A DNA stretch of 45,659 nt from a virus (IMGVR_UViG_3300009285_000019:1-45659); one strand, 5' to 3'; counted from the first letter of the stretch, positions 1,141 to 45,171 are shown. Notes: generated by a model from the letters alone, not told the origin. Numbers and translations are program-made.

Positions 1141-1223
1141 TAACAAGTAAGGTAACAAGTAAGGTAACAAGTAAGGTAACAAGTAAGGTAACAAGTAAGG
1201 TAACAAGTAAGGTAACAAGTAAG
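1141..1223. repeat. Tandem repeat, 12-mer taacaagtaagg, about 6.9 copies.
   Basis: Read directly. It begins immediately after the TAG stop at 1138..1140, and each unit carries two TAA triplets on the + strand. Confidence 0.95.
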
Positions 1224-1257
1224 ATGGGCTAATATATTAACGTAAAAATCGTGGTGA

Positions 1258-1287
1258 TTGACGGCGAGCAAAACGTTGTAGTATAAT
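1258..1287 (+). promoter_or_regulatory. Sigma70-like promoter: TTGACG, 18-nt spacer, TATAAT.
   Basis: Hexamers at 1258..1263 and 1282..1287, about 30 nt upstream of the ATG at 1318. Confidence 0.5.
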
Positions 1288-1317
1288 GGTGGTGTTGATT
1301 GGTAATGGTGGTGTACG

Positions 1318-1806
1318 ATGGCATACGCAACTGAGGGAGAAGTAGAAGTTCTAGTGGGTGATGTCGTGAACAGTCGCAACTTCACTGATTCTACTGTGCC
1401 TACCACTTCTCAAGTGGCGCTGTTCATTACCCAACGGGATGCTCTATTAGACAACGCTCTTAGTATGGTGGGATATTCCACGCCTGTCACTTTGGCTGCA
1501 GACCCGAACGCTTATAACTTACTTGTCCACGCATCCTCATGTGGTGTGGCATCGGACGTCATGGCGGCCTTTTTCCCCATGATGTCATTCGCTGAGGGTG
1601 GTGAGCCTATAGGCAGGTATGCCCACTTCCGTAGCACGTTTGACGCTGCCGTTAAACTAATTAGATCCGGTGGGTTATCTGCTTCCATTTCAGCGACATC
1701 TAGGATTTTCACAGGATCTCAGGAAAACTCCGACGGCGAGACTAAACAGCCGCTGTTTAAGCGTGGCATCTTTGACTACCCAGGGTCACGCATTCTATCA
1801 GAATGA
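1318..1806 (+). CDS. Hypothetical structural protein. Its position suggests a head-tail adaptor or connector.
   Basis: ORF track. It lies between the fibre-like genes and the tail tube gene. The N-terminus AYATEGEVEVLVG...FTDSTVPT resembles gp6-like adaptors, judged by eye only. Confidence 0.4.
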   Translation: MAYATEGEVEVLVGDVVNSRNFTDSTVPTTSQVALFITQRDALLDNALSMVGYSTPVTLAADPNAYNLLVHASSCGVASDVMAAFFPMMSFAEGGEPIGRYAHFRSTFDAAVKLIRSGGLSASISATSRIFTGSQENSDGETKQPLFKRGIFDYPGSRILSE

Positions 1807-2262
1807 ATGTATCATATGTCATACTCGTCGGTGGAAGCGGCGCTACTCACGGTGATCAGGCTGATGTCTGGCTATACTACTACCAACACATCAGCCGGTG
1901 ACTACAGAATCCTTAACGCATCGTCAGGGAAGTCGGTGATATTGACTCCTGGGGCAGTGGTGGCCCGTGAGGTGGTGGCTGCCCCAAGGAGGATGCGCAC
2001 CGTATGGGGAATAAACATAGAGTTGGCGATCCCATTCCGAGGGGACGTTTCCACCGTAGCCACAGCCGTCCGTACAGATAGGCAAGCTTTAATAGATCAC
2101 GTAGATAAGTATCCTACCCTAAACAGCGCTGCTGGGGTATTAACTGCGCTTATTATAGGGGCAGATGAACCTGGGGAGTGGGAAGGGGTTGGTGGTGGGT
2201 TCTGGATACAACGGATGATAATGCATGCGGAGGAGCGGTCAACCATTACCATAGCCGAGTGA
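1807..2262 (+). CDS. Hypothetical structural protein (151 aa), a connector or tail-completion candidate.
   Basis: ORF track. Its ATG directly abuts the upstream TGA. The call rests on position only. Confidence 0.45.
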   Translation: MYHMSYSSVEAALLTVIRLMSGYTTTNTSAGDYRILNASSGKSVILTPGAVVAREVVAAPRRMRTVWGINIELAIPFRGDVSTVATAVRTDRQALIDHVDKYPTLNSAAGVLTALIIGADEPGEWEGVGGGFWIQRMIMHAEERSTITIAE

Positions 2263-2278
2263 GCAACGAAGCATTACT

Positions 2279-2863
2279 ATGCCAACTGAGTATTTTAACA
2301 TTTTCATGTCAAATAATTTGGATAGCGTCACCGATGTGTTCTCTCGGCCCATTACCCCACGCACCGATGCCGGTATTCGCCGTATACTATCAAGGCTTGG
2401 TAGGAACGTTATTGTCCCTAATATGGTGTCTAATACCCCACGTGCCAGTAACCGCCTGGTAAAGTCTACTAATATGTCTACAATGATGGTGGCAGTCCCG
2501 ATGGGTAGATCTGCTTGGGGATTGGTGATCACACAAAACGCCAGGAATAAGATATCAGGCACCGTTTACCAACCATTCGTATCCAAGGGGCGCAGGCCAG
2601 GACGCAGGCCACCATATCAGGCTCTGGAGTTCTGGGTAGCGCTCCGGTTCGGCCTGCCGTGGCCATCGTGGAGGGCCAAATCTGCTGCCTTCGTGCTGGC
2701 TAGATCCATCGGCATTAGGGGCGTTAGGCCCAACCTCTACTTACAGCGGGTCATTATGGAATCAGCCCACGCCCTAGACGATACGGCGGTAGAAATTGGC
2801 AAGGTAGTAGTAGCCGAGATAAACGCACGGGTGAGACCTGTCACCATACCCAAGGGTGGATAG
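2279..2863 (+). CDS. Hypothetical structural protein (194 aa).
   Basis: ORF track, position in the late operon. Its stop codon lies inside the first unit of the following 10-mer repeat. Confidence 0.5.
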   Translation: MPTEYFNIFMSNNLDSVTDVFSRPITPRTDAGIRRILSRLGRNVIVPNMVSNTPRASNRLVKSTNMSTMMVAVPMGRSAWGLVITQNARNKISGTVYQPFVSKGRRPGRRPPYQALEFWVALRFGLPWPSWRAKSAAFVLARSIGIRGVRPNLYLQRVIMESAHALDDTAVEIGKVVVAEINARVRPVTIPKGG

Positions 2864-2904
2864 TGGTGGATAACGGTGGATAACGGTGGATAACGGTGGG
2901 TAAT
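2855..2904. repeat. Tandem repeat, 10-mer ggtggataac, about 5 copies.
   Basis: Read directly. It overlaps the TAG stop at 2861..2863. Confidence 0.9.
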
Positions 2905-2933
2905 AATTAGTTAGATAACTAGGAGGATCTCCA

Positions 2934-4331
2934 ATGGCACTCACGGCATTCCGCCGGATCCAAATCGGCAAAGAAGCCACTCGTGGCACGGGCGTTGCCG
3001 CTACTAAGAAGCTGGTTGGCACGTTGACCATGACCCCCTCTATAACGATGCATTCCCCTGTGGATGAGCGCAACAGCCTTGCGGAGTTCCGTAGGGATGT
3101 CCCCGTGGCGCAAGGGGCCACGTTACGGTTCACCGGATCGGCTATCTACCAACAACTCGTGGATTTTCTTGGCATGGCACTCAAGGGTAGCGTAGCGCCT
3201 GCCTCGGCTACCCCAACAGGCGCAAAATACGATGATAACGGTATATTCGCCAACATGACCAATGCGTTAGACGATAACGTAGTAACCGAGCATTCATTTG
3301 CGGGTTTTGTTGCTGCTCAAGACAAAGTCTACGTCAGGGCCGCAGCGACATTCAGGGCCGTAAAGTGTACCGTAGGTACAACACCTAACGCTGCTGCGTC
3401 CACTATTTCTGCTGTAGAAGTCTCCGATGGCGCTGGCGGTTGGATAGCAGCAACTCTAGTCAGAGATGGAACCTTAGCCAGCGGCGCTTCTCTCGCCCAA
3501 ACTGGCATTATAGAGTTCACAGTGCCGTCTACTTGGCTCTCTGACACTGTTGACGGTGACGCTGGGTTTTGGGTTCGCTTTACTTGGAGTGGTAACTGGA
3601 CTGCTGGCGCTGACATATCCGAGTTAGATACCGTACCAATCGTCACTGTATGGACATTCACTCCGAACCTCACATCTCGCAATAATCAGGATGCTTATAC
3701 CGTAGAGTATGGTGATGATTCCCAAGAGTTTGAGACCACGTTTGGCTTGGTATCGGCTTTGGAGTTGGCTATTACCTTGGGTGACGTGGTAACATTGAAC
3801 GTTGATATGTTTGCCAGGTTCCCATCCAAATCCACATTCACCGCTGCGCTTTCTGATCCCACCGTCAACGAGATTGTAAGCAATCACCTCAGGGTCTACA
3901 TTGATGGTTCCTGGGCCACCCTCGGTAATACCCAGAAGTCTTCTCTTGTAATGGGCGGTACCGTGCGCATGTCTACCGGAGCGGCTTCGGTGAAGTATGC
4001 CGATGGCAGCTTGGATTTCTCCAACTTTATTGAGCAACGTCGCCACCTTGAGATAGAGTTGGAGATGGCGGTGGGGGCTGATGCCATCACTGAGTATGAT
4101 GCATGGGTAGCCCAAACGTTGCGGGCCATAAGATTGGAATGGACTGGCCCGACGCTGGGCGGTGGTAATTACAAGCTTACCGTAGACGCCATAGGGCGGT
4201 ATACCTCTGGGCCTGAGTTCCTTGCCGATAAGGACGGGCAGAACGTCATGCGGTTCATCTTCCAGACTAGGGAGGACTCATTAGGCAACGAGATGTCGTT
4301 CGTTGTGCAGAACAACGTCGCTGTGTTGTAA
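2934..4331 (+). CDS. Putative major tail (tube) protein with an inserted or extra domain (465 aa).
   Basis: AGGAGG RBS. It lies immediately upstream of the chaperone G/GT pair and the tape measure, the canonical siphovirus gene order. The call is positional. Confidence 0.55.
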   Translation: MALTAFRRIQIGKEATRGTGVAATKKLVGTLTMTPSITMHSPVDERNSLAEFRRDVPVAQGATLRFTGSAIYQQLVDFLGMALKGSVAPASATPTGAKYDDNGIFANMTNALDDNVVTEHSFAGFVAAQDKVYVRAAATFRAVKCTVGTTPNAAASTISAVEVSDGAGGWIAATLVRDGTLASGASLAQTGIIEFTVPSTWLSDTVDGDAGFWVRFTWSGNWTAGADISELDTVPIVTVWTFTPNLTSRNNQDAYTVEYGDDSQEFETTFGLVSALELAITLGDVVTLNVDMFARFPSKSTFTAALSDPTVNEIVSNHLRVYIDGSWATLGNTQKSSLVMGGTVRMSTGAASVKYADGSLDFSNFIEQRRHLEIELEMAVGADAITEYDAWVAQTLRAIRLEWTGPTLGGGNYKLTVDAIGRYTSGPEFLADKDGQNVMRFIFQTREDSLGNEMSFVVQNNVAVL

Positions 4332-4362
4332 ACTAGTATGTATACCTAAGGAGGGTATAGGT

Positions 4363-4776
4363 ATGACACCACCAAATGGGGGGGCGTTCGTAGACGACAG
4401 CGCCGATAAGATAGATATTCCAGCGGGTCTTGGGGGAGGTTGGGTAGAAATCAAACCAGAGATGACTATAGAGGATTGGGAGCGTTTTGAGGCGGAGCAG
4501 TTTAGTATAGACGTTACCGGCGCAAACGTCCCAAGAAACCGCCGTGAGCGCCGTCTTCAACTACGGGCGACTGCCTCAGCTACTGACGCACCACCACCAA
4601 CACAAACTGGCCACTTCAACCCCAGTCTTATCACATTATTGGAGCGTAATATAATCCGATGGTCGTGGGATCGCCCCCTAACCCGTGAGAACATATCCAA
4701 GCTCCGGCGGCCAGTTGCTGACTTATTGGTGGCTGCCGTTGAGGAGCGCAATATCCCTTTACTACCGACGGAGTAG
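4363..4776 (+). CDS. Tail assembly chaperone (gpG-like).
   Basis: AAGGAGG lies 7 nt before the ATG at 4363, so the track start at 4303 is probably too early. The gene sits between the tail tube gene and the tape measure and contains an in-frame CCCUUUA slippery heptamer near its 3' end. Confidence 0.7.
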   Translation: MTPPNGGAFVDDSADKIDIPAGLGGGWVEIKPEMTIEDWERFEAEQFSIDVTGANVPRNRRERRLQLRATASATDAPPPTQTGHFNPSLITLLERNIIRWSWDRPLTRENISKLRRPVADLLVAAVEERNIPLLPTE

Positions 4777-5000
4777 CCGTCCACGAGACCTACTACCAAG
4801 CTTTGCGTGGGTGGAGATCTGCTGGTGCGCAACTTGATGAGGACACCGTTAGGTATATCGTCTGCAAGGCTATGGGGTGGGACTATCATACTTTTCAAAG
4901 ACAGCCCAGGAGTTTTATTCATAGCATCCTTAGCCACTTAATGGCTGAATGGAAGAAGGCAAATGATGATCAGCAAGAAAACCGCAGGACCACAAGATGA
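4363..5000 (+). CDS. Tail assembly chaperone frameshift product (gpGT-like), join(4363..4761,4761..5000).
   Basis: The -1 frame is open from 4743 to the TGA at 4998..5000 and has no ATG of its own (the track used TTG at 4803). The heptamer C_CCT_TTA at 4755..4761 is phased X_XXY_YYZ in the G frame. Confidence 0.6.
4755..4761 (+). other. Slippery heptamer CCCUUUA for -1 programmed ribosomal frameshifting.
   Basis: Codon phasing was checked by hand: the G frame reads atc cct tta, and the -1 frame reads ccc ttt act. Confidence 0.6.
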
Positions 5001-5022
5001 TGGGGATGATGGAGATGACGGC
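4996..5022. repeat. Tandem repeat, 9-mer gatgatggg, 3 imperfect copies.
   Basis: Read directly. It spans the GT stop codon and the gap before the tape measure gene. Confidence 0.7.
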
Positions 5023-5060
5023 ATTGGTGGTGCTATATAACTACTGGCGCTAGCGGTGCG

Positions 5061-6917
5061 ATGGGCAGATCCACAATGCCGCCCATTGGGGCTGCTATAC
5101 TTATTACTGCTCAAGAACGAGCCAGTGAGGTGTTTCGTAAAATTGGGGGTGAGGCCGGTAAACTGTCTGGGCACTTGGTTAAAACCGGCGCTACAGCAGC
5201 CATCGTAGGCACCAACTTTAGTAAGCTCAACTTGGCCCTCACTGGGATAATACCAGCAATAGTTGCCTTGGCTGCAGGTGCTACCGCTGTGAAATGGGCG
5301 CAATTTGAGGCGGCTACTCGCCGTGCTTCATTCGCTATGGCGCTGTCTGGGTTATCGGCCCGTGAGGCTCAAATCCGTATAAACATGGTGAACTCCGCAC
5401 TAACACGGGCATCAGCGGAAGGGTTCTTTAACTTTGGTGGTGCAGTCAGTGGGGCTATTGAGCTTGACCGTGACCTTTTCCAATCTTTGCTAGATATCTC
5501 TGGGGCGTTGGAGGATAAGATTAGAATACCGGCCTCTGAATCGTTTGCTGCTATGGCTGAAGCCATTAAGGGTAACAATGAGCCACTAGACGAACTCCTG
5601 GGGCGCATTGGTGCTGTAGTGGGGCCAGTGACTACTGTGGAAGAGAAATTCGCCGCTATAAAAGGGACGCTTGGCACGTTGAGCGTTACCAGGGTAGACG
5701 CCCTATTAACGGCCTTGGGTAGTCTCAAGGAATCAACCGAAACTACTGTGGGTGAGTTGGGTAACGTCTTCTCTGGGTTTTTTGTGGTCTTCGTTGGTAC
5801 GCTGGCAAGTTTCATTATTAACGTTAAGGACAACCCACAGCTTATACTAGCGTTTGCCACTCTTGGGGCGTTTCTGATAGACAAGGGTGCTATCTTTGGG
5901 AAAGGGTTTGTTGGTGCGCTAGTTGGGGCTGCCATTGCTGGGTTGTCGTTGGACCTTGGCTCTTCAATAAAAGGGGTATTAGAGGACCCAGAAGTACTTC
6001 TAGTTATTGGCATTGCCGCAGGGACACTTGGGCGATATATGGGCAGCAAGTGGCTGGTGCCTGGTATAGTCGCCGCCATCGGGTTTGAGCTTGTTCCTGG
6101 GATATCTACTGCGTTAGGTGACGCTGGGATGTCTGACGTTTTGACTGCTGCAGCTTGGGGGTTAGGAATAATTGTCGGTAAAAAGATCGGTGGCACCAAG
6201 GGGGTTCTCGCTGGGTTAGCCTTAGCTTCTACCCTCACCGATAGTATAAATGTGTTATATAATGGCAATTCTATTAGCGATCCAGCCCTTGAACTCGCTA
6301 TTATAGGCTTAGGGGCCGCCATAGGATTCGTGCTGGGCGGTTGGGTGGGACTGACTATTGGTGCTGCAATGGCAAATGCTCTTATACAAGCCGAAAAGGA
6401 GGGTAATCTACCGTCATGGGTACGATTCTTTATTGATCCTAAATACGATAAAGAGATACGTGATACGTTAAAGGATTGGGCTATGAAGTGGGGTGGTGTC
6501 ATATTAGACGGCATTAAGGACCCACTCAAGACCTTCGGCAAAATATTTAGCGACATATTTTCCAGTGAAGGCGTAGCTGATATTCTACGGCGGGCCAAGG
6601 AGTTTGGCGTTAGTGTTGGCAATATGATATTAGACGGCATTAAGTCAGCACTGGGGTGGTTCCTCAATTTCATCTTCCCCTACTCAAGAACAGCGTCTAC
6701 ATCAGCGGTGCCGGTGCCAGAAATGACCCATGCATCGCTTACTAATGACATAGGTGGTGGCATTGGTAGTAGAATATCAGGAATGCCGCTGGGTGGTACC
6801 ATAGTTGTTCAATTGGTGTTGGATAGATATGTTCTTGGTGAGGCTGTAGTAGACATTATTGATCGCACCGCTCGGTTCAAAGCTGGTCTTACTGAGGCAT
6901 CGGTTGCCACCGCCTGA
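5061..6917 (+). CDS. Tail tape measure protein (618 aa).
   Basis: Largest ORF downstream of the G/GT pair. It has a long Gly/Ala/Ile-rich hydrophobic central region. The call is based on position. Confidence 0.65.
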   Translation: MGRSTMPPIGAAILITAQERASEVFRKIGGEAGKLSGHLVKTGATAAIVGTNFSKLNLALTGIIPAIVALAAGATAVKWAQFEAATRRASFAMALSGLSAREAQIRINMVNSALTRASAEGFFNFGGAVSGAIELDRDLFQSLLDISGALEDKIRIPASESFAAMAEAIKGNNEPLDELLGRIGAVVGPVTTVEEKFAAIKGTLGTLSVTRVDALLTALGSLKESTETTVGELGNVFSGFFVVFVGTLASFIINVKDNPQLILAFATLGAFLIDKGAIFGKGFVGALVGAAIAGLSLDLGSSIKGVLEDPEVLLVIGIAAGTLGRYMGSKWLVPGIVAAIGFELVPGISTALGDAGMSDVLTAAAWGLGIIVGKKIGGTKGVLAGLALASTLTDSINVLYNGNSISDPALELAIIGLGAAIGFVLGGWVGLTIGAAMANALIQAEKEGNLPSWVRFFIDPKYDKEIRDTLKDWAMKWGGVILDGIKDPLKTFGKIFSDIFSSEGVADILRRAKEFGVSVGNMILDGIKSALGWFLNFIFPYSRTASTSAVPVPEMTHASLTNDIGGGIGSRISGMPLGGTIVVQLVLDRYVLGEAVVDIIDRTARFKAGLTEASVATA

Positions 6918-6925
6918 TGGTATAG

Positions 6926-6957
6926 GATGGCGGTGATGGAAGATGGCGGTGATGGTA
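6926..6957. repeat. Tandem repeat, 16-mer gatggcggtgatggwa, 2 copies, with gatgg motifs on both sides.
   Basis: Read directly. It fills the gap between the tape measure stop and the ATG at 6959. Confidence 0.8.
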
Positions 6958-6958
6958 A

Positions 6959-8278
6959 ATGGCGAGCGTTAGACTTAGGATAAACAACATAGATCTCACT
7001 TCTAGCATGCTTCACCCACCATCAAGCTCTTGGCGTGTAGATCGCACCACAGGGCCTGAGATTGGGGTGATGGAGTTTGACATTGATGACCCCAATAGAT
7101 CTATTACCGTAACTGTGGGACATGAGGTCTTGTTTGATGATCCAGATAACGCTGCTACAGTTAGGTATTTTGGTGGGGTAGTGGTGGAAATAGAGACTAT
7201 ACCTATAGGGGTAGGCCGTAGGCACCACGTTACATGTCAGGATTGGATTGTGATCTTAGATAAGTCAACTTTCGCTAAAACGTATATTAGTATGACCGAT
7301 CAGGCTATCATCCAAGATATGTTTACCGCTGGCGTTAGTGGCATTACCGAGGTAGATATTACTAATGTTGGCCTTGGTCGTACCATAGATAGGTTAGACT
7401 TCAAAGGCATCAGCGTCAGATCTGCATTAGATATTATTAGCAGCATCACCGGTTTGATATGGTACATTACCACCTTCAAGAAGTTACACTACGAGACCGA
7501 GGGTACTACTGAATCCGCATATTCGCTATCAGACGATCCAGACGACGCCGCTGCTCTTAGTATATATAATATCACTTGGGTTGTGTCCCTTGGGCAGTAT
7601 AACTCGGTGGAGGTTCGTGGTGCACGTGCTCTTAGCAGCGATACTCAGGAAATCTATTCAGGTGATGGGTCTACTACCATCTTCACCACGGGCGCTGCTC
7701 AACAGGCCAACCGCCACGCCATCCAGCAGGCACCATCTACTAGCAGTAGGGTAGAAGTAGACGTCAATACCAACACCGACGGATCACCATTTTGGGACCA
7801 TCAGGACGTGGGGTTAGAGGGAAAAGATACACTAGGCGTCTTGGGTATTGATGTGTTGTGGAACCCGTTAACTCGTCAATTGGAGTTTGGCACAGCCCCG
7901 CCCAACTTTACCAATAGTTGGCGTCTCAAGGGCCGGTATTGGTATAACATCGTAGGCATTGCTCCCGACTCTGCGGCCATAGCATCACAGGGTAGGGTGT
8001 ATAGTAAGGTTTTGTTCATACCAGAGGCGATTAGTGAGGATGCTGCCTACGACCTAGCTTTGGCGTTCCTTAGGGAGAACACCAATAAGAAGCGTTTATT
8101 GGCATCGTTTGACCATGATGGTATAAATGTTGGTGAGTCGGTGATGGTAACATGTACAGCGTTTGGCCTCAGCAACCAACTAATGAAGCTTGTGCAGTTG
8201 GTAATGATGCCGCTGGGCGGCGATCATTATACTTACCGTGGGACGCTGGAACAACATGCCCAATACATCAGTGCCTAA
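6959..8278 (+). CDS. Tail tip or distal tail structural protein (439 aa).
   Basis: Sits immediately after the tape measure gene. No enzymatic motif was recognised. Confidence 0.45.
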   Translation: MASVRLRINNIDLTSSMLHPPSSSWRVDRTTGPEIGVMEFDIDDPNRSITVTVGHEVLFDDPDNAATVRYFGGVVVEIETIPIGVGRRHHVTCQDWIVILDKSTFAKTYISMTDQAIIQDMFTAGVSGITEVDITNVGLGRTIDRLDFKGISVRSALDIISSITGLIWYITTFKKLHYETEGTTESAYSLSDDPDDAAALSIYNITWVVSLGQYNSVEVRGARALSSDTQEIYSGDGSTTIFTTGAAQQANRHAIQQAPSTSSRVEVDVNTNTDGSPFWDHQDVGLEGKDTLGVLGIDVLWNPLTRQLEFGTAPPNFTNSWRLKGRYWYNIVGIAPDSAAIASQGRVYSKVLFIPEAISEDAAYDLALAFLRENTNKKRLLASFDHDGINVGESVMVTCTAFGLSNQLMKLVQLVMMPLGGDHYTYRGTLEQHAQYISA

Positions 8279-8326
8279 TGCCCAGTGCCTAATGCCCAGT
8301 GCCTAACGCCCAATGCCTAATGCCTA
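8271..8326. repeat. Tandem repeat, 14-mer gtgcctaatgccca, about 4 copies.
   Basis: Read directly. It contains the TAA stop of 6959..8278 and the ATG at 8320 of the next gene. Confidence 0.9.
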
Positions 8327-9201
8327 ACACATTCGCTCATACACTGGTCCGGCTTAGACAAGCACTCGCATCTCGCCAAGCGGAGTCCGAGGAAGACCCA
8401 GCTATCACCCAGATTAGAGTAGTCAGCCAGTCCACCAAAATTGGTAGTATAGTTATCACCGCTACCGCAATAGGCCCTACGTATTACGCACACCCCAAAT
8501 GGACCATGACCAGCTTGTTATCATGGTGGACGTTGGCTCAATTAGACGGTGCTAGGGATGTACATGGCGGGTATAACGGCACCATCAACGGTAACCCTGC
8601 GTATGCCACCGTGGATGACGTCACTATTGGTCGCACCAGGAGATACATCACTCTTGATGGCGCTGGTGACTACGTAGACGTTGGTAATATGGTGGAGATT
8701 ACCGGCGCTACTGCTGCACTATCGGTAGCTGCTAGGGTGCGGCTCTCATCCCTTACGTCTAGCCCTGCAGTTGTAGGTAGGCTGGATGGTGGTGGTAACT
8801 TCCAGTTCGCCTTAGAGATTACGTCTACAGGTCGTGTGATATTCGGCTTGGCGGGCGCTGCAAGAGCACAAACCGCTGAAGGTATTATAGTCACCGGCAC
8901 TTGGTATACGGTCACAATTGTATTTGACGGTGCTGGCGTTGGTGATGCTGGTAAAGTACAGATTTACATAAATGGCGTAAGCCAGACCTTAGAGTTTCCA
9001 GCTAGTCCTACCACCACTCTTGTCAACAATTCTGCCTTATCGGTGCTAATTGGACGACGCAACACAGGTTCTAACGAGCTAACTGGCGACGTATATGACG
9101 TAGCAATCTGGACCACCAACTTATCCGCTGCACAGGCATTGGCGCACCACCAAGATCTTGTCGGTGATCGTATAATAGCTAGTTTCTTTAAAGCTTCATG
9201 A
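8320..9201 (+). CDS. Tail protein with a LamG / concanavalin-A-like lectin domain, a receptor-binding candidate.
   Basis: The sequence LDGAGDYVDVGN...SVAARVRLSSL...FALEITSTGRVIFGLAG...GTWYTVTIVFDG...VQIYINGV...LVIGRR...LTGDVYDVAIW matches the Laminin_G_3 pattern by eye. ATG at 8320 is chosen over the GTG at 8299, which lies inside the repeat. Confidence 0.55.
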   Translation: MPNTFAHTLVRLRQALASRQAESEEDPAITQIRVVSQSTKIGSIVITATAIGPTYYAHPKWTMTSLLSWWTLAQLDGARDVHGGYNGTINGNPAYATVDDVTIGRTRRYITLDGAGDYVDVGNMVEITGATAALSVAARVRLSSLTSSPAVVGRLDGGGNFQFALEITSTGRVIFGLAGAARAQTAEGIIVTGTWYTVTIVFDGAGVGDAGKVQIYINGVSQTLEFPASPTTTLVNNSALSVLIGRRNTGSNELTGDVYDVAIWTTNLSAAQALAHHQDLVGDRIIASFFKAS

Positions 9202-9227
9202 TAAGCGTTGGTTAATGGGAGTGTATA

Positions 9228-9584
9228 ATGGCAGCACGGGTAATTAACGAGGGGTTAGCGAGAGCCGCCCAGGTTGTTTTAGACGATATTACTCATGCGG
9301 CGGTAGGCACCGTTTCCACTACCCCGACACAAGCTGATGTACAACTCGGTACAGAGACTAACCGTGCATCTGTTACTAAGGTGCTGCGTAGTGGCAGCAT
9401 TATACAAATCCGCACAATGTTCACAAACGCCAACCTACCTGCGACACTTGAGGAGGCTGGTTGGTTCATGAACGCCACAGGCGCAGCGAACTCAGGGGAT
9501 ATGTTGGTAAGGTCTACTCAGCAATTTGTGAAAGGCACCGCCGATCTGTTGCTCATCCTTGAGGTCCGGGTATTGGAGGGCTAA
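9228..9584 (+). CDS. Hypothetical tail-associated protein (118 aa).
   Basis: ORF track, GGGAG RBS, position in the tail module. Confidence 0.55.
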   Translation: MAARVINEGLARAAQVVLDDITHAAVGTVSTTPTQADVQLGTETNRASVTKVLRSGSIIQIRTMFTNANLPATLEEAGWFMNATGAANSGDMLVRSTQQFVKGTADLLLILEVRVLEG

Positions 9585-10484: not shown

Positions 10485-10760
10485 ATGCCTAACCAAGGCC
10501 CATGGGCTGCTGCTACTCTTGGTAGCGCCGACTTGCTCAACGCCAGCTTGCTACAGTCAGGTACAACCGCTGCTCGCCCCGACGCAAGCGCATCTAATGT
10601 GGGCATGAAGTACTGGGATACCACTGTTGCGGAGCTACAGCGTAGTAATGGAGCAGCATGGGATACAGTAGTGGATTCTAACGGAGGCGCTGCTGTGCCA
10701 TCCCTGAGGACCCTTGGTATCGGAGCATCACAAGCAGCTGTGGGCAACCACACACATTAA
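10485..10760 (+). CDS. Fibre N-terminal-module paralogue, truncated (91 aa, ends ...AAVGNHTH).
   Basis: It shares the motif order of 9748..10455 (RP..A...G..WDT...L.R.NGA.WD...LRT.G...QAA.GNH.H) and stops exactly where the longer paralogue continues. Confidence 0.5.
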   Translation: MPNQGPWAAATLGSADLLNASLLQSGTTAARPDASASNVGMKYWDTTVAELQRSNGAAWDTVVDSNGGAAVPSLRTLGIGASQAAVGNHTH

Positions 10761-10778
10761 AACATAATAGTTAAATAA

Positions 10779-10843
10779 GTGGCGCTGGAAGCTAAGGATG
10801 AGGTTCCCCTCCTAGCCGAGTCCTTAAGCGACCCCAGCGCCAC
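10779..10843 (+). terminator. Long imperfect stem-loop at the end of the + strand late operon (outer stem GTGGCGCTGG / CCAGCGCCAC).
   Basis: The 10-bp outer arms at 10779..10788 and 10834..10843 were read directly, with further inner pairing. There is no clear U-tract. Confidence 0.35.
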
Positions 10844-10851
10844 CTTAATAT

Positions 10852-11031
10852 TCGTCATCTCCATCATCTCCATCATCTCCATCATCCCCATCATCCCCAT
10901 CATCCCCATCATCCCCATCATCTCCATCATCTCCATCATCCCCATCATCCCCATCATCCCCGTCATCTCCGTCATCTCCATCATCCCCATCATCCCCATC
11001 ATCTCCATCATCTCCATCATCTCCATCATCC
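10852..11031. repeat. Tandem repeat, 9-mer ccatcatcy, 20 copies with T/C and A/G variant positions.
   Basis: Read directly. It fills the convergent gap between the + strand late operon and the - strand gene ending at 11036. Confidence 0.95.
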
Positions 11032-11035
11032 CCGT

Positions 11036-11938
11036 CTACCTGCCGGTACTGCCGAATCCCCCAGCGCCTCTAGCGGTCTCATCTAGTTTATCCACTATCA
11101 CTACTTGTGGGGTTGATATTGGGATGATTAGTAATTGGGCAAGCCTATCGCCTTTGTCCACCCGATGCTCCACTGGTAGCAGATTTTTGGCCCCAATAAA
11201 TAATTCTCCTCTGTACTCGGCGTCTATCGTACCCTCAAATATCAGTAGTCTCCTATTAAACCACGCAGATGATCTCCCCCTAAGTATGCCCACATACCCA
11301 ACAGGGATAGCCACTGATACCCCAGTAGGAACTAAGGTGAAATCATCAGGCCCGATGATGATAGTTTTAGAGACAACCAGATCCAGGCCAGCGCTAGTTG
11401 GATAGGCCCTTTGTGGTGGGGTGGCCTCCGAAGTCAAGGAGATTAATAGCGGTGGCACACTTAGAGCCGGTCTTGGCAACGTCGTCGTGGAGTTGTCCAG
11501 ATTCGCTGGATTTTTATTAGGTGCCTTAAGCAGTTTTTTCACCACTGCTATTGCTTCGTCCACGGTTTCCACCCACTCAATGCGGGTATCCCTTGTGTAT
11601 GGGCTATTAGTAGGCCCACCAGGACGCCTCGCCACTACAGGAACGCCAAGGGATACCGCCAGCTGGACCTCCCGCACCGTGCCAACAGACCTAAAATCCA
11701 GGTCTGCTATCACTACATCGGATATGGCTAGAATCTGCTCATTAGCCACAATAATGCGCTGTCCAACATCGCCCGGATCTAAGGCCGGGCGACACATGAA
11801 TCCAAGGTCTGGGCGGTAGCAAGTGACGCCAAGCGCTTGGATATCAATAGACACCAAGTGCCGCCAGTTAGACATTGCAACGCCTTCGGCATTTATTGGA
11901 CCTGCCACATATGCTAGCACTTGCGACCTCCTAGGCAT
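11036..11938 (-). CDS. dut: Fusion protein: an N-terminal nucleoside 2-deoxyribosyltransferase / Rcl (DNPH1)-like domain and a C-terminal trimeric dUTPase.
   Basis: All five dUTPase motifs are present in the C-terminal half (SAGLDL; GRSS; GTIDAEYRGEL; GDRLAQLLI; RGAGGFGSTGR). The N-terminal half reads YVAGPI...DVVIADLDFRSVGTVREVQLAVSLGVPVV, which matches the NDT/Rcl Rossmann pattern. Confidence 0.85.
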   Translation of the reverse strand: MPRRSQVLAYVAGPINAEGVAMSNWRHLVSIDIQALGVTCYRPDLGFMCRPALDPGDVGQRIIVANEQILAISDVVIADLDFRSVGTVREVQLAVSLGVPVVARRPGGPTNSPYTRDTRIEWVETVDEAIAVVKKLLKAPNKNPANLDNSTTTLPRPALSVPPLLISLTSEATPPQRAYPTSAGLDLVVSKTIIIGPDDFTLVPTGVSVAIPVGYVGILRGRSSAWFNRRLLIFEGTIDAEYRGELFIGAKNLLPVEHRVDKGDRLAQLLIIPISTPQVVIVDKLDETARGAGGFGSTGR

Positions 11939-11962
11939 TAATTAGTAGGTGTTGATTAGCGC

Positions 11963-13093
11963 TTAGTGAAGCTCGTCAAGCAATAACTCAGCAACAGGCA
12001 CGATCACTCCAGGGCCAACACCCACCCACCTCACAGGCGCTCCCACATCTTGCTCCACTTTATCCAGCAACGTGGCAATCTTGCGGCGCATATTTGGAGT
12101 GAACATTTCTGGAGCAACGCCAGCCAATTCTGGAACCTTGTAGTCTACCATAGTGAGACATATTGCATCCGGCTTGCATACATCTCTGAACTTGCGGGCC
12201 AGGACTGGATCCCACTCACCTACCCTGCGTATCCGGTTGGTGACGGTGGTGCGTTCTGGCTGAACCAACCCATTGGTGCGGGCCGCTAACTCTGCCCACG
12301 TTATTTCTTTATACATCCCACCAGAATTGCCCGCTACCCTGATGGGGTATGTCCTCATTACCCCAATGACATGATAGTTCCTTTGCCCACCCAACCCAGC
12401 GTCGTTTAGGGCTTGGGCGGGAGTGATGTCGGCTGATGTGACCTGTGGGTAGTTATTGGAGTAGGTGAGGGATAACCCAAATCCTTGGGTTGACTCCACC
12501 ACGATTGATTGCATACCCACCAGGCGATCCGACACAATGACTCCGTCGGTGTGTAGTGAGTATTGTGTGCGATTCCCCCACAGTGTCGCTGACCTCATAA
12601 TCCTTGCGGCTCTAGCCGCACCCACACCTTCTAGGGTGCTGCCGATCTTGGTCCACATGTCGGCGGACGCCTCAACCATGGCGTGCTCTTCTGTGATTAT
12701 CACAGCCGAGAGATCAATGTGCAGGATTGGTCCGTTATTGGCCGGTACGATCTTGCGATGACCGCTGCGGATGATATTACCCATCTCACTATTAAGAACA
12801 CTAATATTCACCAATGCCCCAGGCCCAAGGAATAACTCAGCGGGGGTGTGCCAAGCGCAAGGGATATGGCGCATCTTAAACGCCGTGCGCTCCGCCATAC
12901 CATTATTGATGGTCATGGTATGGCCGGCGTTTGGCCCCCCAACTCTTACCACAGCTGATGGGTTATAAGCCGATGCGTACCAAGCGGTGAGTTCACCTTT
13001 CCCCTCCGACCCGAACTGTCCTCCCATAATAATGGTGACATCGGGACCAGTTTCTGGCTGGGAAAGTTGTCTTATTGGCATTATTGGCATCAT
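11963..13093 (-). CDS. purZ: Adenylosuccinate synthetase (PurA) family homologue, short and phage-type, PurZ-like.
   Basis: It aligns by eye to E. coli PurA: GGQFGSEGKG vs GTQWGDEGKG, VVRVGGPNAGHT vs VVRYQGGHNAGHT, IGSTLEGVG vs IGTTGRGIG, STQGFGLSL...YPQVTS vs GAQGTLLDID..YPYVTS, and TTVTNRIRRVGEW vs ATTGRRRRTGWL. It is 376 aa versus about 430 aa for bacterial PurA. The start overlaps the upstream gene as ATGA. Confidence 0.8.
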   Translation of the reverse strand: MMPIMPIRQLSQPETGPDVTIIMGGQFGSEGKGELTAWYASAYNPSAVVRVGGPNAGHTMTINNGMAERTAFKMRHIPCAWHTPAELFLGPGALVNISVLNSEMGNIIRSGHRKIVPANNGPILHIDLSAVIITEEHAMVEASADMWTKIGSTLEGVGAARAARIMRSATLWGNRTQYSLHTDGVIVSDRLVGMQSIVVESTQGFGLSLTYSNNYPQVTSADITPAQALNDAGLGGQRNYHVIGVMRTYPIRVAGNSGGMYKEITWAELAARTNGLVQPERTTVTNRIRRVGEWDPVLARKFRDVCKPDAICLTMVDYKVPELAGVAPEMFTPNMRRKIATLLDKVEQDVGAPVRWVGVGPGVIVPVAELLLDELH

Positions 13094-13416
13094 CTTATGC
13101 TCCTTGCTACTAGTAATTCGTGGTATACCGCACCCCGTTCACGCCACGCTTGGAAGCAGTAAAATAGGGCGTCTATAAGCTCCTCTGCCAAGTTGCTTAA
13201 CGGGTCACCCTGAAACGTATCGCCGTAGGTTTTCCGCCCCGCAGTCTGACGGGACACCATAAGGTCACCAACCCATCTTAGGTATTCCATCCTGTCGTCT
13301 GAACTGAGGATACGCCAATCAGACGACAGGACCACACCAACAACGGCGGCATCACGATCACGATATGGAATACCACGATATGGAATACCGCTACTGGTAT
13401 CGCTGTTGCTATGCAT
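13090..13416 (-). CDS. Possible MazG-like / all-alpha NTP pyrophosphohydrolase, a MazZ candidate.
   Basis: The segment RKTYGDTFQG.DPLSNLAEELIDALFYCF resembles the K..YG....E..D...Y helix pair of MazG-like phage proteins, judged by eye only. It overlaps purZ-like by 4 nt. ATG at 13416 is preferred over the track GTG at 13431. Confidence 0.4.
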   Translation of the reverse strand: MHSNSDTSSGIPYRGIPYRDRDAAVVGVVLSSDWRILSSDDRMEYLRWVGDLMVSRQTAGRKTYGDTFQGDPLSNLAEELIDALFYCFQAWRERGAVYHELLVARSIR

Positions 13417-32909: not shown

Positions 32910-32961
32910 TTGGTTCTCCTTGTGGGGGCGCTCGGCGTTGCGGCCTTCCCCCACCAATTCC

Positions 32962-33065: not shown

Positions 33066-33232
33066 TTGAATCAGTTAATTAATCTTAATTAAGTTAATGT
33101 GGCTTATCTAATTAATCTTAATTAAGTTAATGTGGGTTATCTAATTAATCTTAATTAATTAATCTTAATTAAGTTAATGTGGCTTAGTTAATTAAGGTTA
33201 GTTAAGTTAATGTGGCTTAGTTAATTAAGGTA
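33066..33232. repeat. AT-rich iteron cluster. AAGTTAATGTGG(C/G)TTA occurs 4 times, embedded in 33-34 bp repeats rich in TTAATTAA palindromes.
   Basis: GTTAATGTGG occurs at 33093, 33126, 33173 and 33206, with spacings of 33, 47 and 33 bp. It lies between the divergent early and late promoters. Confidence 0.85.
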
Positions 33233-41163: not shown

Positions 41164-41188
41164 GGTAAATGGATAAGTGGGTAAGTGG
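41164..41188. repeat. Mini tandem repeat gtaartgg, about 3 copies.
   Basis: Read directly, in the gap after the capsid gene. Confidence 0.6.
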
Positions 41189-41723: not shown

Positions 41724-43919
41724 ATGGCGAAGTCCAGCCTCATCACCGTGGTGGGATACCGCAGCCGCCCTAATCAGCTGCTCAACCAGCTGATCTCCAT
41801 CTTTGATACCGCTACAGGCCATAATCATGACGGCACCGATTCTGCGACTGTTACGGCATCAGTCACTCTTGACCAGGCATATGATACAGGTGGCGCAGGC
41901 GCAGGCCGAGCTATTACCGTTGATAGCGGCGCTGTAGCACTCACCAATAATGCTGCTAACAACAACGGTATTCTTACTGCTACTAAAGACCCAGTTGGCG
42001 CACAATCGGGTGATGCCATAGTAATAACTGTTGGCGCACAAGCTACGGGCGCTGCCATTAACATAGCCAATACGGGCAGTGGCAACGACATTACTGGCAT
42101 TAACTGGTCTGTCTCTCAAGCGGGTGCTGCTGTGTTCGTATCCGTAGATATTAACGGCACCGCAGACGGTCTCATTCTGGACGCTGACGGCGACACTACC
42201 ATCTCATCCCCAACCGATGACCAGGTTGACTTTGAGGTCAACAGCGTAGATGTTCTTAGGTTGACCACTACTCAAATCCAACTGCTCGCAGGTGCTACCG
42301 CAGGACTTAGTATAGCAGCAGGCGGCATTACGATTACTGCAGGCGGCCTGACAGTCTCTGCATCAGGCGCTGCCATCACCGGCGATTCTACGGTCACAGG
42401 CAACCTGACTGTCACTGGCAACCTCACCTTTGGCGGCAACTGGACAGTAGGCGCAACTCTCACCGTTGACGAGCTTATTCTGGATACTGACGGTGCTGCA
42501 CCCGCCGCCTCTAACGTTTACGCTGTACGTGACAATGTTGGTGACCTCACTCTTAACGCTGTTACAGGCAAGACCATCAACCTTGCTGTAAATGGCACCG
42601 ACGAGTATACTCTGTCTGCAACTATTCTGGATATGAATGCCAATGCTCTTGATAACACTGGGTTTATTATCCTGAATGCCGCTACTGCGCCAGATGTCAC
42701 CGAAGTCTACTTCGTCAACGACAATGCTGGCGACCTCACTCTTAACGCTCTTGACACCAAGGCTGTCCACGTTGCAGTTAACGGCACCGACGAGTTCAAC
42801 TTTACTGGAACCGCTCTCCAGGTCACGGCATCCAACAACATCCAGTTTCTTGGTAACAATGGGCTTCTTGACAGTAACGGCAACGAGGTTATTCTCGTAG
42901 AAGCGGTTGCAGGCGCTACCACCTATCTTAACGTCAAGAATGCTAACGGCGCTGCTATTGTTCTGGAATGCTTGGGCGCTGCTGACCTCGGCTTTGTTCT
43001 TCAAAACGACCAGGACGAGCCGCTTTTGACCCTCACCCCAGTAGCGTCGGCGGTAAATGCTGTTACTGTCCTGAACGCTGCTACCGCTGGACGGCCTATT
43101 GTCCGAGTTACGGGTGAAGCCGATATTGGGTTGCAGATTCAGAACCTTGCTGGCGAAGTCATGTTCGCTACTCTTAGCACCAACGCTCCTCTTAACTGGA
43201 TTGAGGTTAGTAACGCTAACACTGGTGCTCGGCCTTTCTTTGTTAACCCCGGCGAAGACGATATTGGTATGGAGTTCCGAGCCAAGAACAATGAGGAAAT
43301 GTTGATATTGGCCGCAACCGCCGCCGCTGTCAACGAAGTTACTATTACCTCCCAAGCGACTGGCGCTGCGCCCTCCATCGCTGCTACAGGCGGTGACGCT
43401 GCTATTGACCTCTCTCTTGCTGGCAAGGGCGTAGGCTATGTTCGCTCCGATTCCAACCTGGACATGAGTGACAACACCTTGTTCGGTAGTCAGGCCAGCG
43501 GTGGCGACCTGCTTCTATCCTCTACAGGCCATGCTACCAAAGGCGCTGTATCGGTACTCACAGGTAATGAGGGCTTTAAGGTTGGCGGCGTCGCAATCCG
43601 TGCTGGCACCGCAGCGACCAACATTCTTGCTGTCTTTGATGGCACTAACCCCCAGGCAGGTCAAGCGCTTGTTAATGGCATTGAAATCTACTCAAACGCT
43701 GGCGAGTGCTTCATCATGGACGCTGCTGGTACCGCTACTCAGCAAACGCCTCACGATAACGCAGGCTACTGGTATCTCAACTCCTATAGCTCCAAGCGCA
43801 ACAAGACTATCCGAATCCACGTAGAGCGGATGCTGCGGGCGCTAGCTGAGAAGTTCCCAGGTGAGCTTGACCGCTTCATAGAGGAGTTACCAGCTGAGGC
43901 GCTCTATCATCACAGCTAG
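41724..43919 (+). CDS. Large fibre-like structural protein (731 aa) with internal sequence repeats.
   Basis: AAGGAG RBS. The N-terminus carries TATGHNHDGTDS. Repeated segments are present: DNVGDLTLNAVTGKTINLAVNGTDEYTLSAT and DNAGDLTLNALDTKAVHVAVNGTDEFNFTGT. Confidence 0.6.
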   Translation: MAKSSLITVVGYRSRPNQLLNQLISIFDTATGHNHDGTDSATVTASVTLDQAYDTGGAGAGRAITVDSGAVALTNNAANNNGILTATKDPVGAQSGDAIVITVGAQATGAAINIANTGSGNDITGINWSVSQAGAAVFVSVDINGTADGLILDADGDTTISSPTDDQVDFEVNSVDVLRLTTTQIQLLAGATAGLSIAAGGITITAGGLTVSASGAAITGDSTVTGNLTVTGNLTFGGNWTVGATLTVDELILDTDGAAPAASNVYAVRDNVGDLTLNAVTGKTINLAVNGTDEYTLSATILDMNANALDNTGFIILNAATAPDVTEVYFVNDNAGDLTLNALDTKAVHVAVNGTDEFNFTGTALQVTASNNIQFLGNNGLLDSNGNEVILVEAVAGATTYLNVKNANGAAIVLECLGAADLGFVLQNDQDEPLLTLTPVASAVNAVTVLNAATAGRPIVRVTGEADIGLQIQNLAGEVMFATLSTNAPLNWIEVSNANTGARPFFVNPGEDDIGMEFRAKNNEEMLILAATAAAVNEVTITSQATGAAPSIAATGGDAAIDLSLAGKGVGYVRSDSNLDMSDNTLFGSQASGGDLLLSSTGHATKGAVSVLTGNEGFKVGGVAIRAGTAATNILAVFDGTNPQAGQALVNGIEIYSNAGECFIMDAAGTATQQTPHDNAGYWYLNSYSSKRNKTIRIHVERMLRALAEKFPGELDRFIEELPAEALYHHS

Positions 43920-43951
43920 GCGCTCTATTATCATGTGGCGCACTCTAATTG

Positions 43952-44018
43952 AATAATTAACTCTGCCTGGTTGAGCAATTAACCTTACCTAATGGAATAG
44001 TTAACCCTGCCCAGTTGA
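43952..44018. repeat. Three imperfect direct repeats of about 22 bp (a[at]a[ag]ttaac[ct]ctgcc[ct][ag]gttga type).
   Basis: Read directly, in the gap before 44033. In addition, ggcgctctayatca x2 spans the upstream stop codon. Confidence 0.65.
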
Positions 44019-44032
44019 AAGGAACGATTGAA

Positions 44033-44638
44033 ATGGCAGTAAGAACTACGAAGTCCTCTGCGGTTACCCGTACTCAAAAACAACTCAAACGCACCTATGC
44101 AGCTGTAGCTGAGGAGCATGACGTTGTAGTCCGCTTGGTTAACAAGCCGCTCTATAACGCTTTTGGAGACCCGTTCTACCTCCAGAACTTTCGCTTTGAC
44201 CCCGAAATAGTCGGGATGATTCAAGCAGAGTTGGATGGCACCAAAGCAGAACCCAACGATGAGGTCTACCTTGAGGAGCTTAACGAGACCATTTCGCTCA
44301 GGGATGATGTGCGGTTACGCCGAAATGTCCATTCCGATATGGCCTACGCTGTAGAGTTCTTTCTACGCTCACGTGACGCTCAGAGCGGTAAAAGTATCGT
44401 GGTCAAAACCCAGACTGACTCAGATCATGTTTGGGACATCGGTCAGGCCCTTCAGCACTTCAGAATCAAAGACTACCTAGAGTTATCCAAGGGCGACCAC
44501 CGCTGGCTTGTTGATAAAGTCAAAGAATGCGCCTTTCAGGTTTATCCAACCGATGCTCGCATGTTCCTGGATGCTTTGGCAATAGCGTACCCGCCACAAG
44601 CTCTTATTGAGGTTGAATTAGGCCCCGATGCCGAGTAG
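44033..44638 (+). CDS. Hypothetical protein (201 aa from the ATG).
   Basis: Same frame as the track ORF at 44015 (TTG start). ATG at 44033 is preferred. Confidence 0.6.
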   Translation: MAVRTTKSSAVTRTQKQLKRTYAAVAEEHDVVVRLVNKPLYNAFGDPFYLQNFRFDPEIVGMIQAELDGTKAEPNDEVYLEELNETISLRDDVRLRRNVHSDMAYAVEFFLRSRDAQSGKSIVVKTQTDSDHVWDIGQALQHFRIKDYLELSKGDHRWLVDKVKECAFQVYPTDARMFLDALAIAYPPQALIEVELGPDAE

Positions 44639-44675
44639 CCATAGCCGAAGTCACGGCTTCTAGGGAGCAACCCAT

Positions 44676-45083
44676 ATGGCAGTAGTAGTTGAGACCGTTA
44701 CAAGTCTAGCTCACGAGGTTCCATATCGTCAAGTAGATATGCCATCGTATCTGATTGGCACCTACTCAGCTAATGACGTGGACAACCACGACTTCAAGGC
44801 AGATGCTCGTGGCAAGGGGCGTCTCACTGTAGCAGTAGACAACCCTGCCAATAAGTCTGTGGTTGTTGACATCTACGGTATGCACTCAGCCACAGGCACC
44901 GTTGGCGACGTTGGCACCTTTGTTATAGCAACCGCCGCTATGACCATCGCTAACGCCGCCAAGGACTACGAGACCGTGGCTGACCCATTTCCATTCTATC
45001 TAGTGCGCTGTACGCACTCTGAGGTACCTACTGACGACCCGCTCAAGACAGTTACTATCTACATAGACTTTTCCGCTTTCTAG
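44676..45083 (+). CDS. Hypothetical structural protein (135 aa).
   Basis: ORF track, GGGAG RBS. Confidence 0.6.
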   Translation: MAVVVETVTSLAHEVPYRQVDMPSYLIGTYSANDVDNHDFKADARGKGRLTVAVDNPANKSVVVDIYGMHSATGTVGDVGTFVIATAAMTIANAAKDYETVADPFPFYLVRCTHSEVPTDDPLKTVTIYIDFSAF

Positions 45084-45090
45084 TTCTGCT

Positions 45091-45171
45091 CGGATTGTAT
45101 CAGATGATAAAAGTCGCTACTACAGATTGTATCGGATTGCGGAAGTCATTTCGGATTGTGTTGGGTTGTGG
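45091..45171. repeat. Cluster of dispersed ggattgt-type short repeats (4-5 copies).
   Basis: Read directly, in the gap upstream of the ATG at 45181. Confidence 0.6.

Follow-up and report, generated by a model that had tools for sequence, protein, structure and literature searches.

The window analysed here (IMGVR_UViG_3300009285_000019, the whole stretch of 45,659 bp) is a viral genome in which short tandem repeat arrays, nearly every one with its own unit, occupy many of the gene junctions. Its first and last 68 bp are identical (1-68 = 45592-45659), and it is therefore a circularly assembled, probably complete phage genome; the gene at 45181-597 crosses the end junction. Genes for the large terminase, for a portal of Mu type, for a fusion of protease and scaffold and for the major capsid protein lie on the + strand. 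Replication and nucleotide metabolism are encoded in a block on the - strand, in which there are a superfamily 2 (SF2) helicase and a family A polymerase whose N-terminal domain belongs to the UDG superfamily. Exact-protein look-ups matched the window to groundwater metagenomes of bioproject PRJNA292723 and to related assemblies. At the nucleotide level the window matches none of the 50,697 deposited phage genomes searched, and tRNA and Rfam scans of it were both empty.

Coordinates, units and copy numbers of the arrays were taken from Tandem Repeats Finder (TRF), run on the whole window (Table 1). Thirteen of the 15 loci listed in the initial annotation were recovered by TRF as described there; those at 43952 and 45091 are decayed and not clean arrays, and the list lacked three intergenic arrays (14681, 19338 and 21883), some 25 in-frame repeats within genes, and the AT-rich repeat that occupies 33075-33231. 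All arrays are contiguous, head to tail and without spacers, and their units differ, which bears out the view that they form neither a CRISPR array nor one dispersed repeat family. The further statement that no two loci share a unit holds for nearly all of them, but positions 4996-5021 (+) and 10969-10994 (-) have an identical 26-nt stretch of (GATGATGGR)n, in each case in the sense orientation of the neighboring genes. Periods of the 18 intergenic arrays are 7 nt (five arrays), 8 nt (five), 9 nt (three), 10 nt (two) and 12, 14 and 16 nt (one each), so heptamers are not dominant.

To our knowledge, phage genomes are usually almost without multi-nucleotide tandem repeats. At a TRF score of ≥50 the window holds 19 loci, and 50 shuffles that preserve dinucleotides average 0.08; at a score of ≥30 it holds 47 and the shuffles 5.4. 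Nineteen of 46 repeat loci fall within the intergenic 8.5% of the genome (p=2e-9), a fraction derived from gene calls on public contigs. Background density was estimated from two panels, the first comprising 80 PurZ-encoding viral loci plus relatives and the second 79 UDG/PolA-encoding viral loci, with the array-rich relatives L005, L031 and L037 excluded. These panels contain 35 non-triplet short arrays in 2.82 Mb (0.12 per 10 kb), against 1.97 per 10 kb in the window, a 16-fold difference (Poisson p=1e-8) in keeping with the earlier remark that such a density is abnormal for a phage. The presence of intergenic tandem arrays is thus confirmed as real and far beyond chance.

Table 1. Tandem repeats and consensus promoters in the window (TRF coordinates unless marked otherwise)
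Position	Strand	Feature	Context
1140-1223	+	(TAACAAGTAAGG)x7, perfect	begins at TAG stop of gene 901-1140
2855-2903	+	(GGTGGATAAC)x4.9, 10-mer	TRF; starts within last codons of gene 2279-2863
4995-5021	+	(GATGATGGR)x3, 9-mer (x2.7 by TRF)	
6926-6964	+	(GATGGCGGTGATGGAA)x2.4, 16-mer	occupies 41-nt spacer
8269-8327	+	(CAGTGCCTAATGCC)x4, 14-mer	TAATG stop/start junction duplicated
10855-11033	-	(TGGAGATGA)x19.6, 9-mer, internal A/G variants	just past stop of DmtZ-DutZ-like gene
13072-13090	-	9-nt in-frame duplication of ATG junction	PurZ N-terminus becomes MMPIMPIR
14681-14707	-	(AACCAGACA)x3	40-nt spacer preceding gene 14709-15065
19338-19353	-	(ATGTGAG)x2.3	directly past stop of gene 19354-20094
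20127-20190	-	(ATGTGACG)x8, 8-mer, perfect	between Sak4-like gene and gene 19354-20094
from 21883	-	(GGTGCTG)x2.7	after TAAGCCAA array
21906-21932	-	(TAAGCCAA)x3.4, 8-mer	overlaps stop of gene 21931-22944
22974-23066	-	mini-arrays ATGAGAT x3.4, GCCCAAGCAA x2.3, CAATTGGT x2.1	leader downstream of consensus promoter
23820-23868	-	(TGATGCAG)x4.5, 8-mer, plus decayed copies	unit holds start codon of gene 23604-23825
26192-26227	-	(CAAGGGCAA)x4, in frame	immediately precedes stop of gene 26189-26536
30178-30222	+	(TAGCTGA)x6.4	convergent junction; copy 1 is stop of gene 29582-30190
30965-31045	-	(TTAGACC)x11.6, perfect	ends 29 nt upstream of -35 box, promoter of gene 30615-30845
41164-41188	+	(GGTAAGTG)x3.1, 8-mer	after major capsid gene
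43891-43933	+	21-mer x2	TRF and find_repeats; spans stop of gene 41724-43919
43952, within 43891-44020	+	decayed ~22-mer x3, ~70% identity	by eye only
45093-45178	+	decayed ~30 nt x3, 68-80% identity ("ggattgt cluster")	upstream of gene 45181-597
15646-15676	-	promoter TTGACAGCCCGTTAAAGGTGTGGTATAATGG	
23083-23113	-	promoter TTGACAGCCCGTTAAAGGTGTGGTATAATGG	
26093-26123	-	promoter TTGACAGCCCGTTAAAGGTGTGGTATAATGG	
29497-29527	-	promoter TTGACAGCCCGTTAAAGGTGTGGTATAATGG	
30905-30935	-	promoter TTGACAGCCCGTTAAAGGTGTGGTATAATGG	
32278-32308	-	promoter TTGACAGCCCGTTAAAGGTGTGGTATAATGG	
32960-32990	-	promoter TTGACAGCCCGTTAAAGGTGTGGTATAATGG	

Arrays adjoin or overlap the stop codon of the upstream gene or take in the downstream gene's start codon; in long spacers they lie beside the stop codon, and a promoter or Shine-Dalgarno sequence fills the remainder. 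Their interiors are perfect and their edges decayed. A sense-strand stop codon is present in 15 of 18 intergenic units (9.5 expected from non-array intergenic sequence, p=0.006) and an ATG in 8 of 18 (2.7 expected, p=0.003), with an antisense stop in just 3 of 18, and we attribute this stop and ATG content to duplication of the junction. Copy 1 of the 10-mer array at 2855-2903, for example, provides the real TAG of gene 2279-2863, and the next copies provide TAA, displaced by one frame with every copy. Similarly, the GATGGCGGTGATGGAA unit copies the ATGGCG start of gene 6959-8278, a gene separated from gene 8320-9201 by the CAGTGCCTAATGCC array. The TAGCTGA unit has two stop codons, and its array closes all three reading frames. 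The TAAGCCAA and GGTGCTG arrays jointly (21883-21932) occupy a 52-nt spacer, and the array at 1140-1223 sits upstream of the promoter for gene 1318-1806.

Some arrays generate chains of mini-open reading frames (mini-ORFs) of one to four codons, joined via TGATG or TAATG overlaps. There are eight ATG-TGA start-stop units at 20125-20193 (ATGTGACG), three TGATG-joined mini-ORFs of the form ATG CAG TGA at 23825-23865 (TGATGCAG) and a TAATG-joined chain of MPSA-stop mini-ORFs at 8278-8327 (CAGTGCCTAATGCC), all three chains ending at or near a real start codon. Gene callers also place a 90-aa ORF at 10757-11029 (-) that starts inside the 9-mer array and reads (MME/MMG)n; it is 54 aa long in contig L141, and no such ORF is called in L144, which has 4 copies. 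The real product there, if any, is more likely an ~31-aa tail starting at ATGACGAAT.

Period separates the repeats within genes from those between them. In gene interiors the period is a multiple of 3 at 24 of 27 loci, the three exceptions being weak two-copy matches, whereas between genes it is so at 4 of 19, near the one-third expected without constraint (coding versus intergenic, Fisher p=5.8e-6). Besides in-frame repeats at gene ends, such as (CAAGGGCAA)x4 ahead of a stop codon and the 9-nt duplication at the PurZ start, the approximately 25 triplet-period repeats inside genes include others at 13462, 22169, 27084, 27417, 32422 and 32784. Since coding repeats keep a triplet period and intergenic repeats take any period, the pattern points to duplication followed by purifying selection.

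Copy number was compared between samples using ENA and Logan contigs fetched by exact-protein look-up from approximately 15 ENA/Logan assembly or run accessions. Four assembly sources are represented: the window contig itself, which is from JGI, Logan, the ANAN16 scaffolds, and ENA contigs whose k127/k141 names are in the MEGAHIT style. When JGI metagenome contigs were scanned twice, using the unique sequence on either side of the 12-mer and 8-mer arrays, there was no match, and the source contig too was missed. Samples differ in copy number at the four longest perfect arrays. Four contigs, from four assemblies, span the whole of the 8-mer array at 20127-20190 and show 8, 6, 4 and 4 copies of its unit. 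The 9-mer array at 10855-11033 has 20 copies in the window and in ERZ909573, 8 in ERZ28563660 and 4 in ERZ27254759, with a longer variant in ERZ4903185. The 12-mer array at 1140-1223 has 7 copies in the window and 3 in an ERZ27254846 contig that spans it completely; contigs of other assemblies end within it and keep at least 9-11. The 81-bp 7-mer array at 30965-31045 has 11 copies in 2 assemblies, and contigs of 6 others stop inside it at 2-11 copies; 5 of those 6 ends keep no more than ~8 copies, far below the assembly k of 141, and probably reflect branching from mixed lengths within a sample.

Short arrays, in contrast, are invariant. Those of ≤49 bp are identical wherever spanned (2-7 assemblies per array), even in a strain with ~0.2% single-nucleotide difference; the 10-mer array at 2855-2903 keeps its length in 7 assemblies and the TAGCTGA array at 30178-30222 in 6. 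Most other apparent indels between assemblies are runs of N in scaffolds. Because the longest perfect arrays vary and the short ones do not, instability rises with array length and purity, as slipped-strand mispairing predicts. The initial annotation had suspected a slippage-prone process and had proposed this comparison, and its outcome agrees with that suspicion, as does the period-mod-3 filter.

Arrays are restricted to part of the phage's kin. Sister phages L031 and L032 (capsid 69% identity, collinear structural genes) and the relative L037 (PolA 57%, PurZ ~57% and DmtZ-DutZ-like protein 53% identity, collinear) have a density of junction arrays similar to that of the window, again abutting stop codons, but their units and junctions differ. 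After the capsid gene, for instance, the window has GGTAAGTG x3 where L031 has GGGTGAA-type and CGATAGGTGACAAT arrays, and L037 has AATAGGCA x3.6 at a site where the window has a 4-nt gene overlap. Capsid relatives at 51-63% identity (L001-L004, L033, L035) have essentially no arrays, and one of them has about half the window's intergenic fraction in the comparable module, by a tally from gene tables. No IMG/VR capsid relative is among the polymerase matches, which suggests that these relatives carry another replication module. The trait is therefore young, labile and lineage-restricted rather than a set of conserved elements, given that sisters differ in junctions and units and that farther relatives are without arrays.

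Several genes of the - strand suggest an unusual DNA chemistry. Gene 11963-13093 (-) encodes a short PurA-like enzyme whose best PDB match is 7VF6 (E=1.8e-41), with the PurZ structures of phiVC8 and S-2L next in rank; 7VF6 is PurZ0 of Gordonia phage Archimedes (PMC12884076). Its GSEGKG motif, in which the catalytic Asp is replaced by Ser, is invariant in our alignment, and the same change is present in all 147 phage PurZ sequences analysed previously (PMC12884076). Gene 11036-11920 (-) encodes 294 aa, with a dUTPase domain at residues 159-294 and an N-terminal region of ~150 aa without an assigned fold, a predicted architecture that fits a DmtZ-DutZ fusion; dutZ is usually fused to dmtZ in PurZ0 genomes (PMC12884076). 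A MazG-like pyrophosphohydrolase is encoded at 13582-14046 (-), with a Sak4-like annealing protein nearby, and the gene set as a whole spans 11036-14046 and 15654-18401 (-), the family A UDG-PolA included. The closest PurZ matches from cultured phages are from Arthrobacter and Microbacterium phages; the window itself is from groundwater and has 51% GC. Relatives of PurZ and PolA in IMG/VR were found with alignments, as single-protein scans gave none or one distant match. From the PurZ0-like synthetase, the DmtZ-DutZ-like fusion and the Asp-to-Ser motif, all read from predicted proteins, we consider that the phage probably replaces adenine with 2-aminoadenine (Z) in its DNA.

A modified base or the phage polymerase had been suggested as the source of the arrays. 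A PurZ0-type pathway and a family A polymerase of the phage's own are indeed present, but neither is sufficient. The Z-containing phages S-2L, phiVC8, Goodman and HunterDalle show ordinary triplet coding repeats only, and the 80 PurZ loci are at background array level. For a UDG-fused PolA the result is the same, with the 79 UDG/PolA loci at background. Three candidates for the driver are replication of Z-DNA by the phage's own UDG-PolA replisome, its Sak4-like annealase, and some factor of the host.

We think it probable that the arrays, whose excess, location, period filter, stop and ATG content, polymorphism and lineage restriction are matters of observation, are lineage-specific tandem duplications of the slippage type that occur at gene boundaries and are filtered by selection. 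They would then be variable-number tandem repeats (VNTRs) of a phage, akin to the long simple sequence repeats (LSSRs) of bacteria. In this scheme, a high, lineage-specific rate of short tandem duplication and expansion would act genome-wide, presumably through slipped-strand mispairing or template switching during replication. Purifying selection would clear the events that change proteins, such that within genes just triplet-period copies survive. Arrays of any period could build up in the few free nucleotides, be it immediately past a stop codon or over a stop/start junction, and there the stop, the ATG or both may be duplicated with both proteins left intact. Once long and perfect, an array would go on expanding and contracting, and samples would come to differ in copy number. 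For the molecular step we infer slippage, and for the arrays themselves near-neutrality.

Four points weigh against this account. Slippage, like heteroplasmy within a population, is deduced from contigs and not from reads. A Z genome and a UDG-PolA, both considered as causes of the raised rate, occur in phages that are generally array-free. The enrichment in stops and ATGs, the mini-ORF chains and the fact that junctions rich in arrays persist in two sister lineages could also result from selection for a function. Finally, not every array can have arisen purely in situ, since two of them share the 26-nt stretch.

That function might be one of contingency or regulation, with copy number tuning translational coupling or transcription and thereby giving heterogeneous expression across the population; we regard this as possible but clearly less probable than slippage filtered by selection. 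Three-frame stops, start-stop mini-ORF relays, unstructured standby RNA or changes in spacing could provide the route. Copy number is polymorphic between samples, as in hypermutable tracts; stops and ATGs are enriched in the units on the sense strand only, and chains of ATG-TGA, TGATG and TAATG mini-ORFs lie immediately upstream of real starts. Two arrays are positioned just upstream of promoters, sister phages keep the array richness, and the analogous TAACTGA repeats of bacteria have been proposed as regulatory (PMC4679880). However, the contexts are mixed (before a promoter, in a leader, between co-transcribed genes and at a convergent 3'-3' junction), sister phages conserve neither array positions nor units, and most arrays do not vary between samples. 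Stop and ATG content is moreover automatic when a junction duplicates, and an effect of the arrays on expression is a proposal drawn from sequence geometry. A more specific version, in which the arrays are selected contingency loci whose unit number would determine the quantity of ribosomes or polymerases arriving at the following gene, and in which the trait stems from the UDG-PolA replisome copying 2-aminoadenine DNA, seems to us somewhat less plausible again. Were the contingency explanation true, a clonal burst would hold many expression variants. Phage contingency loci have been reported as homopolymer tracts (bioRxiv 10.1101/2025.10.21.683753). Like the arrays of the window, these are slippage-prone repeats that give heritable length heterogeneity in a phage population, but they are tracts of ≥6 nt, mostly within ORFs and acting by frameshift, whereas the window has units of 7-16 nt at junctions. 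Our literature search found no phage for which variable-number repeats at multiple loci had been described, and on phage contingency loci just this single report, which concerns homopolymers only.

Alternatively, the arrays could be imposed by an LSSR-rich bacterial host, through a replication or repair property or a repeat-binding factor. An exact search for (TAGCTGA)4 found at least 120 bacterial loci (L145-L264) across many phyla and 13 IMG/VR contigs (L265-L277). Taxa among the matches listed include Moorena, Okeania, Trichodesmium, Gemmatimonadaceae, Chitinophagales, Acidobacteriota, Chloroflexota, Patescibacteria, Vibrio and Pseudoalteromonas. Among the same matches, the surroundings of (TAGCTGA)4 hold 4.6 non-triplet arrays per 10 kb, 87% of them heptamers, with 108 other units, and a GCTGA core occurs in 15.6% of the other heptamer arrays (~1.4% expected by our own estimate). 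Four viral contigs (L274, L277, L265 and L267) have 7-15 different heptamer arrays each in 10-14 kb, and a distant capsid relative (L005, IMGVR_UViG_3300027914_002000; 28% identity, 68% GC) has at 351-9323 heptamer arrays that form one dispersed family, (GCTGACN)n, and lie shortly upstream of start codons. Together these matches suggest a widespread heptamer-repeat syndrome with a preferred GCTGA core; our literature search found such a syndrome described for TAACTGA only. The array-dense neighborhoods in bacteria and viruses, the four heptamer-rich viral contigs unrelated to the window and the reported existence of LSSR-rich bacteria (Mrazek 2007, cited in PMC4679880) all speak for a host contribution. 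Nevertheless, we find a host origin doubtful, as polymerase, helicase and annealase are all encoded by the phage itself, as periods in the window are mixed (7-16 nt) where 87% of arrays around the listed matches are heptamers, and as a capsid-profile scan of 185,579 species genomes found no relative.

Comparison with known repeat systems places the window closest to bacterial LSSRs, which have units of 5-11 nt (Mrazek et al. 2007, summarised in PMC4679880). LSSRs and VNTRs share with it short units arranged head to tail without spacers, many loci with different units, a strong intergenic bias, copy number that varies between strains, slippage as the proposed origin and a sporadic, lineage-specific distribution. 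A different unit at each locus is the normal appearance of LSSRs, and the syndrome known in bacteria therefore seems to reach some phages, of which the window is a rare example, a counterpart of bacterial repeat-rich genomes. Unlike these genomes, it is a phage of the lytic type, 45.6 kb in size, that has a replisome of its own as well as a Z-base pathway, its periods extend over 7-16 nt and are not dominated by 7, and its units visibly derive from the local stop/start junction. The viral contigs L274, L277, L265, L267 and L005 resemble it in having many different short arrays within 10-14 kb, but nearly all of their arrays are heptamers, in which a GCTGA core recurs, and they have no detectable protein similarity to the window except for the L005 capsid.

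TAACTGA heptamer direct repeats are known from Beggiatoaceae, cyanobacteria and Bacteroidetes (MacGregor 2015, PMC4679880). Like the window's arrays, they are intergenic, provide stops in all three forward frames and often overlap an upstream stop or precede a start, and the TAGCTGA unit, found at one locus in the window, is a single base off. In contrast to the window, with nearly one unit per locus, TAACTGA is a single dispersed unit at ~170 loci. The - strand of the window has TAACTGA twice, as isolated copies and not as the unit of an array, and the + strand lacks it. The cyanobacterial repeats STRR1-3 are likewise short tandem intergenic heptamers of repeat-rich genomes, and the 7-nt arrays had been taken as a weak hint of a cyanobacterial host. 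That hint is not sustained: the STRR heptamers CCCCAGT, TTGGTCA and CAACAGT occur in the window as 0-6 scattered single copies each and never as an array unit, HIP1 sites (GCGATCGC) number zero in the window, the sample is groundwater and (TAGCTGA)n, the single unit searched for, is spread across many phyla.

A role as binding-site arrays, insulators or recombination linkers between modules, an idea also raised in the initial annotation, would suit their position at gene junctions. It is very unlikely, as the unit differs at almost every locus, so that no single binding protein would suit, as the arrays are not at visible module boundaries and do not overlap the terminator-like hairpins, which lie elsewhere in the window, and as sister phages conserve neither positions nor units. 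That the arrays are assembly artefacts is scarcely credible: although Logan contigs break inside arrays, and the 12-mer and the AT-rich 80-bp repeat differ in copy number between the window and two assemblies from SRR2177362, the same arrays recur with unique flanks in independent assemblies from all four sources and ~15 accessions, and alleles below k=141 are fully spanned.

If the arrays are slippage products filtered by selection, the phage offers a natural experiment in mutation pressure versus selection in a compact genome, with repeats of any period wherever a duplicated stop or start is harmless. The arrays account for the fragmentation of this phage's assemblies and could be used as strain markers for the groundwater phage population. 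They also raise the question of whether slippage is promoted by a replisome copying 2-aminoadenine DNA or by a host factor. More broadly, array-rich phage contigs and the recurrent (TAGCTGA)n/GCTGA heptamer point to an under-described syndrome common to some bacteria and viruses.

Apart from the arrays, a small gene of L031 at 10609-10803, in the tail-gene region, has an Acb2/Tad1 hairpin domain of the anti-CBASS/Thoeris sponge family and no counterpart among the window proteins compared. A capsid homologue (P0080, 52% identity) is deposited within a Dehalococcoidales metagenome-assembled genome, whose label is the sole taxonomic hint on hosts of the capsid lineage; it is a very weak hint and was not used for a host call. 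The seven near-identical 31-nt promoters of the - strand (Table 1) have a consensus -35 and a TG-extended -10, and matches to the promoter number 9 against 0.47 expected. It follows that the phage depends on an RNA polymerase of its host that is of the sigma-70 type. In the ERZ28563660 strain, a 16-bp indel (CCAGATCCAGATTCTG, 25978-25993) falls at the annotated 5' end of gene 25499-26011, and the annotated start is therefore probably wrong. The AT-rich TTAATTAA-type repeat at 33075-33231, with periods of 33, 47 and 80, lies between divergent promoters at the cumulative GC-skew minimum and has one additional 80-bp copy in the ERZ909573 assembly. It is a repeat of another kind, probably origin iterons or a regulatory region.

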